A stretch of 64,000 nt of DNA from Pristiophorus japonicus (GCF_044704955.1 NC_091979.1:162006001-162070000); one strand, 5' to 3'. Positions 1-6,185 are shown, counted from the first letter of the stretch. The notes: generated by a model from the sequence alone, not told the origin. Numbers and translations are program-made.

Positions 1-197
1 CATGCATTAAAATAAGTCCTGTCCTTGCTCCAGTCCTTGGCTGCTGGGATGCACATTCCGTCCGTTAAATTAAACAAGACTCCATAGTTCATATAGTTGT
101 TTATTTCCAGCGTGCTCTGCTGTCCGTCGGTGTTGCCCAGGGTACGTGCATGTCGCAGGGCTATCCATATTACGAGTAGCGCCTTTCGTATTCCCAT
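1..197 (-). CDS. Putative envelope/secreted glycoprotein N-terminus (partial, open to window edge)
   Basis: Manual translation: MGIRKALLVIWIALRHARTLGNTDGQQSTLEINNYMNYGVLFNLTDGMCIPAAKDWSKDRTYFNA. Basic-then-hydrophobic signal-like start, NLT sequon, GGAATGG Kozak context, and the first ATG after the splice acceptor. Not in the ORF track because there is no stop in the window. Confidence 0.55.
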   Translation of the reverse strand, partial: MGIRKALLVIWIALRHARTLGNTDGQQSTLEINNYMNYGVLFNLTDGMCIPAAKDWSKDRTYFNA

Positions 198-285
198 TCC
201 GGTAAGTATTATCTGTAATTTTAAACAGACGGCCTGGTCGTCACCAGGGGTTAAGTTTTTTTGCTCTACGAGTGTCCCTGTCACC

Positions 286-307
286 CTGCAAAATCAGAAG
301 GACAAGG
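286..307 (-). promoter_or_regulatory. Splice acceptor upstream of the env-like ORF
   Basis: Minus strand CCTTGTCCTTCTGATTTTGCAG|G. Confidence 0.55.
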
Positions 308-2789
308 TTATAATCGAACCATTTCGAGCTGAATCTGTAGGGCGTGCGCCTGTGTCTTTACCCACTTAAATATTACCCAAACTTCTATTATGACCAAGGC
401 CAAAGCTATTCCTCCAAACATCGCTGTCTGCTTTACCGTTAGGTTGGGTTTGTGGACTACACCTACCCACCGTGGGGTACATTGGCTCTATTGCCAGAGG
501 TGATGGTGCTATGGCTGCGCACTGCACTATCCGTCTAGACCCGTTATCTCTTCCAGCCTGTTTATCTTAGCTTTTAACTCTTCAATTTGTTTTATTGAGT
601 ATCTATTTCTTTATTGTATCAGGCAAGTATTATTACATAAGCTAGTTCTGTTTTTATTTTTGTTTCCTCTGTTAGGTGAGTCTTTTTTTTTTCTATTAAG
701 AAATCCAAATTAATAATGTTCAGTATAAAACGGCTGTCAATGGAAAGGGTTAACTCCTTTCCAGGTTTGTAAGAAGACCTGATGTCATTACGTGACTTCA
801 CGTAATCATCTGAAAAAAAAGTCTTTGTGCCTTCAAAACTGGCTTCGAAATTAGGAATCCGTTAAAAACAGCATTAATCATTAGAGTAAACTCCAATGTT
901 TTCTTAACTTCTAATTCAAGTACTTGCCAAAGAATTTTTTTTTTAATTGTTTTAAAACAAGACCACACATACAATAGCAATTTTGTTTACTGAAATTCAA
1001 TTCTGTTTTTTTTTTATTTCTCTCTTTCTCCTCGTTATCTTCAAAACCCTCCTGCTTGTTTAGACTGTTCGGGACATTTTGGAAATCTTTTCAAACTGCA
1101 TTGAAACTTTTTCATAATTGAAAATTCGAATCCATGTAGAGTGTTTTTTTTTTACTTATTCCAATTTTTTTTCCTCTTCTAATTAAACCAATATCTTTTT
1201 CACAGCAAACATCAACTAGTATTTAGTAAGTTATGTCTTTTTCCATTTAGTCTGTTACATCTTTTTTTTTCTTTCTTCAAATTAGGTTTTGTATTTTACA
1301 CGGAGGGTTCGTAACTCCATAAAGTTGTTAATTTAAAATCATTTGTTTACTTTCAAAGTGGTGTCTTTATCTTTTTCTTTTTCTCCATAACTGGAATGGA
1401 GTCCAGCTTTTGAGTGCTGCCTTTCGTTATCTCAAAATGCTCCAGTTTCAAAGTCGTTACTAAAGCTTGTTGTTTTTTAACATTTTCCAAAAGTTCCTTT
1501 TACACCTTCGCAGATAGCTCGCCACTTGCCCAGGAGTTTGACCTGATCAGATTTAATTTAATCTTTCTCTCTTTTTTTTTTTTTAAATCCACCTCAGTAT
1601 TTCCTGTGCCTTCTCTGAATATCTCAAAATCCCAATTCAAACTTTGTAATTTCAATCTTTATTTAAAACTTTTTTTTTAGAAGCTCTTTTTTTTTTAAAG
1701 CATTCTTTATCTCATTCCGAGACTAAATTTATGTCTTTCAACCCAATCAATCATTGCATGTTTTCTTTCGGCAAGTAAGTGAGCATGTCAAATAAATATT
1801 TTGCTCAACAAACCTATTCTTTATTTGTTTATTCTCCTAGCTCCGTAACTTATCATCCGAATAAATCCACACCTGCGTTTCTAACTTAAATGTCTTAAAA
1901 CTTCCCACATACAGGACAACATTACAAAGGGTTTAAAAAAAGACTTTCACTCTGTTTCTAAAATAAACAGACACTTGCATTCCTCTTCCAACCAGGCTTT
2001 CGGAACATGAAAACATAAAAAAATTCATTCTGCAGTCAAAAATCACACAGACACTTCTCACTCAACGATCAGACATTTACAACAGTCTCTCTTCTTGTTT
2101 TGGCCGGCTCTATTTTTGGATCCATGACCTTTCAGGGAATTCGTAGTTTTATCTAAATAATTCCTCACATAACTAATTCCTGAGGATTCCACCCTGCTTT
2201 AATCATTTTTTCAATTAGCTTCTTTTGTTTTTCCGCCAGGTGGCGGGTAAGCGACCCTTCTGGTCCCCACTCGAGTTTACTTGTTTTCATGGCCATTCCT
2301 GGGTAGGACTGGTATCGTTAGGAATCTACTCTCAGAGGTCCGCTTTCTTTCTAGCGCGACTTGTAGTAAACTGTCTCTTGGCTACTGTCAGGTCACAAGT
2401 TCTGCTGTTACACAAACTTATACAATTCTTAAAAACGCGTTTAAGCAATTCCCGCAGTGCTCTACGTATCCTTAACGACTACCTACCACCGCTCAGCCCG
2501 TTGGTCCGACCCTGTTCACAGGTTTGGATTCCGTTAGCCGCTGTACACCGCTTGGTTCTACCCCGGGGTATTTCAAATTTCACTACTGGGTCCGGAAGAT
2601 GTCTCTCGGTATCACGATCCCACGGTCTAAGTGTGTTCCCTACGCCTACTTGGTTCCTGGCCGTCACGTGGGACAAAAGTCCTCTTAATTCAGGCTCAGG
2701 CTAGGCGTTTGAGATATTAGACCGTCTCCTCATGTCGATCAACCAGCTTCCACCTTCCGCACCCTTTATACTTAAAAATTGTTTTTTAT

Positions 2790-2798
2790 ACTCACCCG
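2790..2798 (-). promoter_or_regulatory. Major splice donor just downstream of the PBS
   Basis: Minus strand CGG|GTGAGT about 35 nt after the PBS, the usual retroviral position. Confidence 0.6.
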
Positions 2799-2831
2799 GG
2801 TTTTTTCCAAGGGCGTCCAGCGACTCCGGGA

Positions 2832-2850
2832 AATCCTGCCGACTACGCCA
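2832..2850 (-). promoter_or_regulatory. Primer binding site complementary to tRNA-Ser (AGA/TGA type)
   Basis: Plus strand AATCCTGCCGACTACGCCA equals the 3' end plus CCA of vertebrate tRNA-Ser and lies 1 nt from the LTR end. Confidence 0.88.
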
Positions 2851-2851
2851 T

Positions 2852-3531
2852 TGTTAGCGTTAGTGTTTTCTTAGAAGAATCACTCAACACTCAGGGTCGG
2901 TTCCAATGCTGAAGCAGCTTTTATTACGCTCAGCGGGAAGGAAAAACTCAGGACCGTATCCAGGTTTCTCTTCACAGAACAAAGGATTACATGCACCTTT
3001 ATATGTTTCACAACAGTTACAAAACAGTTTACTACAGCTACACAGCCCATCACGGCTGGACACAAGCCAATCACAATGATTATAGATTACATATAGGTTA
3101 TTTTAACCCAATAGAATTCCCCTTATGTCTCAGGAACCATGTGTTCGTCTTTTGTCAGCTTGGGCTGATTGATATAGGTTCTCTCACTAGTTCTTTCTTC
3201 TTGGAGAAATAATTGGTTTCTAACCTTGTTTACAGGAGATGGGTTCTCTTATCTCTTTCTTCCTGGGGAATTAATTGGTTTATGGCCTTGAATATGGGAG
3301 ATGGGTTCTCTCCTCATTATTCTTATCCTGCATCCAAGGCATTCCTATAGTGGGCCTCACAGGGTTATTGCTCGGTCATTGAACATTCAACAGTTCACAG
3401 CTTGACTACCTGATTTCCCATCATGCCTGGGCAGCCATTTTATGTGTGGCCACTTAAGCTTATGTGAGTTCTAAATATCCAGCAGGTGCCTAATGCCTAA
3501 GTCTATATATATCTTTCGACTCTCTACAACA
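2852..3531 (-). repeat. 5' LTR of the retrovirus-like element
   Basis: TGTTGTAG...GCTAACA termini. Minus-strand ATATAAA at 2998-3004 and AATAAA at 2920-2925. About 63-bp imperfect direct repeats (~3174-3312) in U3. Confidence 0.8.
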
Positions 3532-6185
3532 TTCATAGTCTCCTTTATTTAAGCTTAATGGGCCCAAGTTTCCACATGATAAAAAACGGGCGCCCCTCCG
3601 AGCTGGGCGCCCATTTTTCGCGCCTAAAACGGTGCCTAAAAAAAACCTCGCAATTCTGGAGCATTCTGCAGCTCCTTGTCTGCCTGGCGCGGCACCCAGG
3701 GGGGCGGAGCCTACACTCGCGCCGATTTTGTAAGTGGGAGGGGGCGGGTACTATTTAAATTAGTTTTTTTTCCTGCCGGCCACGTTGCGCGTGCGCGTTG
3801 GAGCGTTCGCGCATGCTCAGTGTGAAAAAAACATTGGCACTCGGCCATTTTTGTAGTTCTTTGTAGCTGTTTAATTTTTGAACATTTTTTTAATAAAAGC
3901 ACATTAGCACTTGCGGCCTTCTCACTGTCTCCTTCCCCCCTCCCCCGCGGGAACGAAACGGCTGTTTAATTCCCCCCCCTCCCCTCCACGGGAACGAACG
4001 GCTGCAGAATTCTCCGTGCCTGAAGCACTTGCACACAGGTAGGAAGATGTTTTATTTAATCTTTTCTTTGCTTATAAATGTTTATTCAGGTTGGATTTAT
4101 TTGTATAATATTTGTAGAAGTATAAATAAGGATTTATTGTAGAATTTAATGAGTTCCCTCCCCCCCCCCTCCCCCCACCTCGTTCTGGACGCCTAATTTG
4201 TAACCTGCGCCTGATTTTTTAATGTGTAGAACAGGTTTTTTCAGTTCTACAAAAATCTTCACTTGCTCCATTCTACTTTAGTTTGGAGTACGTTTTCACT
4301 GTGGAAACTTTCAAATCAGGCGTCAGTGGCCGGACACGCCCCTTTTGAAGAAAAAATTCTGTTCCAAAGTAGAACTGTTCTACCTGACTAGAACTGCAGA
4401 AAAAAAAATGTGGAGAATTGCGATTTCTAAGATAGTCCGTTCTCCACCAGTTGCTCCTAAAAATCAGGCGCAAATCATGTGGAAACTTGGGCCCAATATG
4501 CTGGTTTGAGATCCAACTTTCTCACCCTCCATCTGAATTTGAAATTCAACCATGCTATGATCACACATTGCAAGAGGATCCTTTACTCGGAGATTGTTTA
4601 TTAATCCTGTTCCATTACACAGGACCAGATCTAAGATAGCCTGCCCCCTGGTTGGTTCCGTTACATACTGCTCAAAGAACCCGTCCCTCATACACTCTGT
4701 GAACTCTTCCTCAAGTCTACCCTGACCAATTTGAATTGTCCAATCAATATGGAGGTTAAAATCACCCATGATTATTGCTGCTCCCTTTTTACAAGCCCCC
4801 ATTATTTCCTGGTTTATGCTCCGACCAACAGAGTTGCTACTGTTAGGGGGCCTATAGACTGCGCCCACCAGTGACTTTTTCCTCTTATTATTCGTTATCT
4901 CCACCCAAACTGTTTCAACATCCTGATCATTTGAGCCAATATTGTTTCTCACTATTGTAGTGATTCCATCCTTTATCAATAGAGCTACCCCACCTCCTTT
5001 TCCTTTCTGTTTGTCCTTCCGGATTGTCAAATACCCCATAATATTTAATTCACAGTCCTGTCAATTCACCTTGCAACCATGTCTCTGTGATGGCTATCAG
5101 ATCATACCCATTTGTATCTATTTGTGCCGTCAACTCATCTATTTTGTTACTAATGCTACGTTCATTTAGACAAAGTGCCATTAAATTTGTTTTTTTCCTT
5201 TTTTTCCTGCTTGTTTGCTCTCTCCTTCAAACTCACTTTCTTTATTTTTGCTTTCTAATTCCAGATTTACTCCTCTCCCTACTGAATCTATTTTCATATT
5301 CCCATCCCCCTGCCAAGTTAGTTTAAATCCTCCCCAACAGCACGAGCAACCACCCTACCCCGCGAGGATATTGGTCCCGGCTTTGTTGCAGTGCAAACCG
5401 TCCGGCTTATTCAGGTCCCACCTCCCCCAGAAGCGTTCCCAATGCCTCAGGAAATTAAAGCCCTCCCTCCTACATCTTCTCTCCAGCCACACATTCATCT
5501 GCTCTATCCTCCTATTTCTGTTCTCACTGGCTCGTGGCACTGGGAGTAATCCGGAGATTACTACCTTTGAGGTCCTGCTTTTTAATCTCTCTCCTAGCTC
5601 CCTAAACTCAGACTGCAGGACCTTATCCCTCTTTCTACCTATGTCATTGGTCCCAATATGGACTGCGACCTCTGGCTGTTCATCTTCTCCCCCCGTGCAG
5701 CCACTCAGTGACATCCTTGACCCTGGCACCAGGGAGGTAACATACCATCCTGGAGTCACATCTGGGGCTGCAGAAATGCCTGTCTGCTCCCCTGACTATT
5801 GAATCCCCTACCACTATAGCTCTTCCATTCTTATTCCTCCTCGCCGTGCAGCTGAGCCATCCATGGTGCCGTGGATTTGGCTCTGGCTGCACTCCTCAGA
5901 GCCACCATCACCCCCACCGGTACTCGGAACAGAGTACCGGTTGGAGAGCGAGATGGACTCAGGGGACTCCTGCACTACCTGCCTAGTCCTCCTCGTCCGT
6001 CCGGCAGTCACCCATTCCCTCTCTGCCAGCACACTCTTAAACTGCGGGGTGACCATCTCTAGAAATGTGCTATCCATGTAGCTCCCAGTCTCTCGGATGC
6101 ACCGCAGTAACTTCAGTCGCCGTTCAAGCTCCAAAATGCGGAATTCGATTTGGTGCAGCTGGAGACACCTCCTGCACACGTGGTC
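3532..6185 (-). mobile_element. CR1 LINE (ORF1 zinc-finger/esterase and ORF2 APE endonuclease), degenerate; interrupted by a MITE and by the LTR element
   Basis: ORF1 motifs IVVGDS, HIGTND, DGLH (SGNH esterase); ORF2 VYRPP, MGDFN, LDLV, DH. Removing the MITE restores GSQTSILSLNKGDYE down to 3532. Confidence 0.9.
3560..4494. mobile_element. PIF/Harbinger-type MITE
   Basis: Perfect 21-bp TIR GGGCCCAAGTTTCCACATGAT (3560-3580 / 4474-4494) with a 3-bp AAT target-site duplication; no coding capacity. Confidence 0.92.

Follow-up and report, generated by a model that had tools for sequence, protein, structure and literature searches.

The window analysed here is a 64-kb stretch (G000:C3:162006001-162070000) of the 5.9-Gb assembly of the shark Pristiophorus japonicus. 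One end of it holds, on the minus strand, part of an endogenous retrovirus (ERV), and the adjoining DNA (L011) completes the element. In full the element measures 6,279 bp. Besides its two LTRs and primer site it has a polypurine tract, and it is flanked by a 5-bp target duplication. The 5' LTR (2852..3531) is 680 bp, runs from TGTT to AACA, and differs by 1 mismatch from the 3' LTR, also of 680 bp, which lies outside the window (G000:C3:162003253-162003932). An earlier note on this DNA, made from the window alone, had proposed that a second LTR be sought by leftward extension; it is present, together with the target duplication. The copy of the latter inside the window (3532..3536) reads ATGAA on the element strand; the other follows the 3' LTR and is not within the window. 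Within the 5' LTR are a pair of U3 repeats (3171..3311, 78% alike over 79 nt), a putative TATA box (TATAAA, 2998..3003) and a putative polyadenylation signal (AATAAA, 2920..2925), the last two recognized by sequence match. No match to the element was found in the rest of the 64-kb window, in agreement with the claim that it is unrelated to the four Mag-like elements.

A primer-binding site of 19 nt (2832..2850) is complementary to the tRNA-Ser(AGA) genes of the genome. The 3' word of this tRNA has 1022 exact genome matches, against 0 for a reversed control, and ARAGORN returned Ser(AGA) at 4/4 of the tRNA loci checked. A second variant of the primer site occurs in 13 of the 31 copies read; no tRNA-like word matched it with the two patterns tried. 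The leader (2297..2831) has ~93% identity with that of young helpers, the full-length relatives described below, and likely contains the packaging signal. It is followed by a gag stub of 43 codons (2165..2296), 92% identical to the helper Gag N-terminus. Next comes ~1.75 kb of A-rich non-coding filler (421..2164), which stands in place of gag-pol and is present in every pol-less copy examined. The 5' end of env (1..197) has a hydrophobic, signal-like start when read from position 197, the first ATG after the predicted splice acceptor.

The predicted splice donor, CGG|GTGAGT (2790..2798, cut 2796|2795), lies just inside the leader, and the predicted env acceptor, TTTTGCAG|G, is at 282..293 with its AG ending at 286. 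Both are common to helpers. The same pair occurs in 15/15 close copies of the element and in helpers L053 and L054, as expected if env mRNA is spliced at these predicted sites. A database gene model of a sister locus (P0012) predicts another pair, equivalent to a donor at 2487 and an acceptor at 212/213 of the window, and the second candidate donor, GGTG|GTAGGT, is at 2481..2490. The element is covered by three contig runs, all from a single study and of unrecorded kind; among the joints they list none falls at the predicted splice, 19 joints are unlisted, and the runs count neither for nor against splicing. The earlier note had read the LTR motifs, the tRNA-Ser primer site, the donor, the acceptor and the ATG at these very places. 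It had also described 2.5 kb free of any long ORF. No long ORF is indeed present between donor and acceptor, but the region is not free of genes, as it contains the gag stub at 2296-2165.

The env gene and its product

The frame that opens at 197 was previously described as open to the window edge. That holds up to the edge, but the frame stops after 93 codons, 27 past the edge in L011. It is lost at a short tandem repeat just beyond the window. After the repeat there is a stop and then an open body of 567 codons, or 530 aa from the Met, which possesses a furin site (RVKR) and a TM helix and lies in a different frame from the signal-like start. This F-like body, the polypurine tract and the 3' LTR occupy L011:4162-1753, outside the window. 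An ORF that ended shortly past the edge, with no fusion-protein features or TM segment, had been named beforehand as speaking against an env. The ORF does end there; a TM segment, however, was found, as were features of a fusion protein.

The close copies are nearest relatives by choice, sampled from the surroundings of the 40 top-scoring LTR matches (18 stretches). They comprise 15 copies with two LTRs (13 independent insertions), 2 solo LTRs and 1 copy cut by the stretch limit. The signal-peptide frame ends early in all 15, after 93 codons in 14 and after 85 in one, and the 567-codon body is open in 13/15. Both frames are nearly invariant among young copies. Fifteen further copies have the tandem repeat without the stop; none contains a whole env (0/15), and most have additional breaks. 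The tandem repeat by itself is no proof of a break, because L067 carries it and has env back in frame. Outside the close set, signal peptide and body share one frame in 3 of 8 pol-less copies that were chosen for long frames. The earlier suggestion that env had been kept open does not hold. Co-option of the window env, a question raised along with it, is not supported, because the frame is broken in 15/15 close copies and in 15/15 further copies with the break pattern. In addition, the copies number in the hundreds and their private env changes look neutral. A whole ORF at one conserved locus under purifying selection, as a co-opted gene would have, was not found.

Among labelled homologues, those nearest to the env product come from sharks, which makes the proposed cartilaginous-fish origin likely. 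Comparison of the env frames with Pfam and with the sequences of solved structures gave nothing significant. A structure was modelled for a full-length Mustelus homologue (P0002, 60% identical) rather than for the window copy, from a 27-sequence alignment, with low overall confidence (pLDDT 58.6, pTM 0.36). In the PDB it has 241 matches at E <=0.001, to paramyxovirus and pneumovirus F proteins, with hPIV3 F the best (7.5e-11). Superposition gave Z 11.8 with hPIV3 F (rmsd 15.5, 325 aligned) and Z 11.3 with Langya F (rmsd 5.8, 328 aligned). Top matches among viral models include WEHV-1 Env (E 2.8e-12) and WDSV Env (6.6e-11), and foamy Env was matched as well. A profile of the Env family found SnRV Env with a probability of 89.5% (E 2e-6) and, in a small set, foamy Env ORFs (E 1.5e-7). 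One full-length helper Env is 707 aa from the Met, with RVKR, a TM peak and a short tail that ends ~140 nt from the LTR; it contains neither the gamma-type CX6CC motif nor the immunosuppressive domain. Distant members of the family occur in frogs and a skate. The Env of this family is predicted to be a furin-cut class I fusogen of the F type, with the core fold of paramyxovirus and pneumovirus F, heptads and a TM segment. The fusion-protein features that the earlier note proposed to look for appear to be present, with the F fold predicted from the homologue model.

An F-like Env has been reported for lokiretroviruses (PMC7947760), and foamy Env is F-like according to PMC11468914. The Env of WDSV and WEHV is described in PMC9967133 as being without the gamma-type hallmarks. 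The literature searched did not yield any report that epsilonretroviral or SnRV-clade Env has an F fold, a weak result as subscription papers and supplements were outside the search. Related sequences may be present in the supplements of the anamniote Env paper, PMC6001957 and PMC7947760. The shark family would tie the Env of snakehead retrovirus, walleye epsilonretrovirus and foamy viruses to the paramyxovirus F fold. Such a link bears on the origins of retroviral envelopes, for which PMC7947760 gives four scenarios.

Full-length relatives of the element

The genome was searched with the related protein P0012, which gave 18,123 first-look candidates. Among the 104 that were scored, many have frames of 737-765 codons. 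Twenty sister copies were taken for their long env frames; 12 possess pol and 8 do not, and 6 of the 12 have gag, pol and env all open. These helpers are ~9.4 kb long, with open ORFs of 469-472 aa (gag) and 1,178-1,181 aa (pol). In the one example scanned, Gag contains two zinc knuckles and Pol contains retroviral protease, RT, tether, RNase H and integrase. Gag and pol share one frame across a UGA, found at the junction in 7/7 read. Of the 8 helpers in which the target duplication can be resolved, 7 have one of 5 bp; among 11 LTR pairs compared, 3 are identical and 3 others exceed 99%. The helpers carry gag, pol and env between LTRs, as members of the Retroviridae do, and the window copy lacks pol.

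The window element and the helpers have in common the LTR, the leader, ~40 gag codons and, after the filler, env. The filler has no match in helper gag-pol, in SnRV Gag or in a protein search, and no open frame longer than 119 codons was seen among 150 scored of 3160 candidates. Between subfamilies it is 87-99% identical. The upstream region had been described as decayed; instead, it is mostly filler that has no helper counterpart and that replaces the whole of pol and the part of gag from roughly codon 40 onwards. The description as a non-autonomous provirus that carries env was apt, as LTRs, primer site, polypurine tract and target duplication are kept and pol is missing. Autonomous relatives are present in the same genome. 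The genome-wide search for pol-bearing partners, which had been advised, yielded helpers that could mobilise the element in trans.

The 15 close copies are 6,221-6,281 bp long, have 0-1 LTR mismatches and differ from one another by 1-63 substitutions. Exact genome matches number 823 for the env break pattern (the tandem repeat), 406 for the env stop, 83 for a helper RT word and 1022 for a filler word. The last is no clean count of pol-less copies, because the word is also found in pol-bearing mosaics. Target duplications in the window subfamily are 5 bp in 5/13 and 4 bp in 8/13. One LTR mismatch would correspond to ~3 My at the borrowed shark rate of 2.2e-10 substitutions per site each year, given in PMC4422223. 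The window copy is a very young provirus, one among hundreds, of an undescribed shark family, which has expanded very recently and on a large scale in the germ line of what is likely a shark; the ERVs described from such hosts had ages of tens of millions of years.

The reading that we favour, with a probability of roughly 85%, is that the window holds a young non-autonomous ERV of 6.3 kb that has lost gag-pol, whose env is broken and which likely depends for its copying on Gag-Pol supplied in trans by full-length sisters that are probably related to SnRV. The LTR would drive transcription of the pol-less provirus, helper Gag would package its RNA, tRNA-Ser would prime reverse transcription and helper integrase would insert the new copy. 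Template switching between co-packaged RNAs would periodically bring back a helper env, which would then decay. The long open env body of the window copy would likely be a recent import of this kind and not a sign of function. Trans-mobilisation by helper proteins is likely; the signs of it, fresh insertions and mosaics, are indirect. The two kinds of provirus appear to form a clear pair of helper and parasite, with mosaics caught mid-process.

The affinities of the helpers can be inferred from their predicted proteins. Among exogenous references, the helper RT matches SnRV best (46%, 202 bits vs 156 for gamma and 152 for foamy). The SnRV reference used (L159) agrees with the published SnRV length and UAGGGC junction, as given in PMC12193657 and PMC13517186. 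The Gag zinc-knuckle region matches SnRV at 54% over 41 aa only (E 3e-12), the sole clear Gag match. For helper RNase H, integrase and protease, gammaretroviruses give the top score or share it; for RNase H the values are 108-123 bits with gamma, 107 with SnRV and 44 with foamy. An RT tree of 32 rows, with L169 and L143 removed by a motif filter, has the shark clade (97/99) outside the gamma and epsilon-like group (96/89) and joins it to SnRV at 79/52 only, with few references. The tree is without WDSV, SSSV, ZFERV, ERV-L and lokiretrovirus references, its supports are read with a re-rooting shift, and its deltaretrovirus rows are long branches. By domain content the helpers are retroviruses and not Gypsy elements. 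A relationship with SnRV appears more likely than an epsilon-like one, and a lokiretrovirus identity is disfavoured on indirect grounds.

The alternative that survives best keeps the same mechanism and makes the helper epsilon-like (SSSV/ZFERV-type, clade Mu) or a lokiretrovirus. The UGA junction is that of SSSV, ZFERV and RMERV, where SnRV has UAG (PMC13517186), the gammaretroviral scores of RNase H and integrase and the MLV RT as best solved match point the same way, WEHV-1 and WDSV Env are among the top structure matches, and the F-like Env recalls lokiretroviruses. It is nevertheless doubtful, as there are SnRV matches in all three of RT, Gag and Env, a comparison that weakens the epsilon-like option, and the shark RTs fall outside the gamma and epsilon-like clade of a tree that lacks the references named above. 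Moreover, helper target duplications are mostly 5 bp, against 4 bp for ERV1 (PMC4299795), and the helper RNase H is not foamy-like, unlike that of lokiretroviruses.

Probable exchange of env and other readings

For the env body of the window copy, identity is 98% with young helpers and 91-94% with older pol-less copies, and the LTR of the window element is 85-88% identical to those of young helpers and its leader 93%. In the env tree, pol-less and pol-bearing copies are interleaved, and the filler forms a series of its own. Five mosaics of filler and pol, with 0-1 LTR mismatches, were found; env is deleted in part in five pol-bearing mosaics. The simplest reading of the window env is that it came in from a helper and has since been decaying, and it is likely that env has been re-acquired from helpers through recombination. 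Values of env dN/dS between subfamilies are mostly 0.05-0.17; most pairs of pol-less subfamilies give 0.12-0.17, and two give 0.36 and 0.70. Low values between pol-less subfamilies would be expected if env is repeatedly imported from helpers.

In 11 young copies, env changes taken together are 14 synonymous and 18 non-synonymous, a pN/pS of 0.37 (helpers 0.12). The synonymous excess has a p of 0.006 to 0.06 depending on transition bias, from small numbers. Seven of the 14 synonymous changes are alleles also found in helpers, and these explain the excess here, the numbers again being small. The private changes, 7 synonymous and 16 non-synonymous and likewise few, give a p of 0.25-0.53 against neutrality. 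The density of variable sites is 0.024 in env and 0.023 in filler. The window copy is a passenger and not a co-opted gene.

A different role is conceivable for other subfamilies. Some pol-less proviruses might provide the Env used by helpers or by env-deleted mosaics, acting in trans as one half of a split genome, and the window subfamily would then be a cheater that has lost this role. The pol-less lineage is old, given its filler divergence, yet env is always present, whole frames occur in the 3 of 8 sampled copies, dN/dS between subfamilies is about 0.15, and the five pol-bearing mosaics lack parts of env. Set against this, helpers have their own open env, a whole env is present in 0/30 copies with the break pattern or closest LTRs, many of which have identical LTRs, repeated import also predicts a low dN/dS, and the 8 copies had been picked for long frames. 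We regard such envelope donors as improbable.

A use of the truncated Env by the host is more improbable still. Either the 93-aa peptide, if secreted, or the 530-aa body could act as a restriction factor or co-opted gene. Truncated Envs serve as restriction factors in mammals, and the near invariance of both frames in young copies would fit. The copies are, however, very young and dispersed in hundreds rather than confined to a single conserved locus, their private changes look neutral, and the body has no signal peptide and is broken in many ways in related copies. An env-bearing Ty3/Gypsy (errantivirus-like) derivative, an option in the earlier note, was ruled out: an F-type env with a tRNA-Ser primer in an LTR element does recall many errantiviruses (PMC13524379), but helper pol has a retroviral RT and a tether plus RNase H, the dual arrangement of retroviruses and not the single Ty3 type, and its RT scores 404 bits with MLV RT, the best solved structure, vs 204 with Ty3 and is only 27-32% identical to the window's Gypsy RTs.

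Comparison with known systems

SnRV and the ERVs of its clade (clade Huo of Xu et al. 2018, PMC6001957; elephant-shark CmiERV lineage I, PMC4422223) are the closest to the shark family, with the best RT match, a Gag zinc-knuckle motif and a homologous Env. SnRV-like ERVs are already known from a cartilaginous fish, the elephant shark (PMC4422223). The layout of gag-pol, with read-through of a stop, and the donor just 3' of the primer site are also as in SnRV. SnRV differs in its UAG junction, long Env tail and accessory 3' ORF, whereas the shark family has UGA, a short tail and no accessory 3' ORF. Its two zinc knuckles and shorter Env (707 aa from the Met) are likewise unlike SnRV, and the window copy, unlike ERVs of the SnRV clade, has no pol. 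The elephant-shark ERVs are dated to >50 My (PMC4422223), and the family described here has near-identical LTRs.

In lokiretroviruses (Wang and Han 2021, PMC7947760), too, RNase H is dual, and Env resembles F and has a signal peptide, coiled coils, a TM segment and an RXKR site. The shark RNase H is gamma/SnRV-like and not foamy-like, on scores only, and the RT is nearest to SnRV. The five host classes listed in that paper do not include cartilaginous fish, and no smc gene was seen in the shark family. Epsilonretroviruses (WDSV, WEHV) and foamy viruses have an Env that matches the shark family by structure, foamy also by profile. The shark Env is much shorter than theirs, and pol groups elsewhere.

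A broader picture can be sketched tentatively, although as a whole it seems rather unlikely. It would be a still-active shark system in which a long-lived pol-less satellite outnumbers its helper ~10:1, env is traded and some subfamilies are env donors, and in which the F-type Env common to SnRV, walleye epsilonretroviruses, foamy viruses and lokiretroviruses is the ancestral retroviral envelope. If true, the F-like fusogen would be ancestral and not an oddity of lokiretroviruses or foamy viruses.

VL30, ETn, MaLR and recombinant koala retrovirus are examples of defective ERVs and non-autonomous LTR elements that helpers mobilise. As in these, the window lineage retains its cis signals while the coding region is replaced or decayed, is more numerous than its helper and recombines with it. 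It differs in its shark host and in its filler, which had no match in the comparisons above, and it keeps and repeatedly appears to re-import env, rather than gag.

Filler and mosaic copies

The A-rich, non-coding filler that stands in place of gag-pol in the pol-less copies (window 421-2164) holds short gag-like relics. These are a coiled-coil-like stretch and a proline-rich stretch (window 421-700 and the filler of the fetched stretch L068), and they suggest that another retrovirus contributed a gag that has since decayed. The filler was scanned for open frames and a protein search was made, and no donor of the relics was found. Five mosaics (L079-L083), of 8.8 kb each, are also present. In these, gag is replaced by filler, which is followed by pol of the helpers, the full-length sister proviruses, and then by an env carrying a deletion. 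Their LTR pairs differ by 0-1 mismatches.

Insertion sites and target duplications

The provirus lies in a decayed LINE, presumably CR1/L2-like, seen at window 4464-5795 (minus strand) and, in the neighbouring DNA that completes the provirus (L011), from 1752 leftwards. This LINE carries ORFs for an endonuclease (PF14529) and a GDSL esterase (PF13472). An element of about 950 bp with 29-nt terminal inverted repeats (93%) was inserted into the same LINE (window 3552-4502), 16 bases from the provirus. It is likely a non-autonomous DNA transposon. Immediately past the 3' LTR, on the L011 side, there is a Gypsy-like gag piece.

Target duplications of 4 bp and 5 bp are mixed inside this single, very young family (L011-L025, L053-L083). 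L022, L023, and L025 (G000:C4102 and C12) represent a single insertion that has been duplicated, flanking DNA included, in tandem arrays spaced about 11.6 kb.

Primer site

The primer site (window 2832-2850) occurs in two variants, found in 18 and 13 of the 31 copies read (window and sister copies), and both are present among helpers and pol-less copies alike. Genomic tRNA-Ser words match only the window's variant; for the second (13/31), a genome pattern search with two patterns matched no tRNA-like word. The tRNA-Ser 3' word has 1022 matches genome-wide. It forms long tandem arrays, with a period near 1.95 kb, at about 11.7-20.5 Mb of G000:C23.

Distant members of the Env family

Distant members of the Env family, full-length or partial (P0039, P0030, P0036, P0038, and P0023), were found in the frogs Mantella, Pelodytes, and Xenopus, as well as in one skate and one bamboo shark. 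None of these is annotated. Mantella possesses 16 near-identical members.
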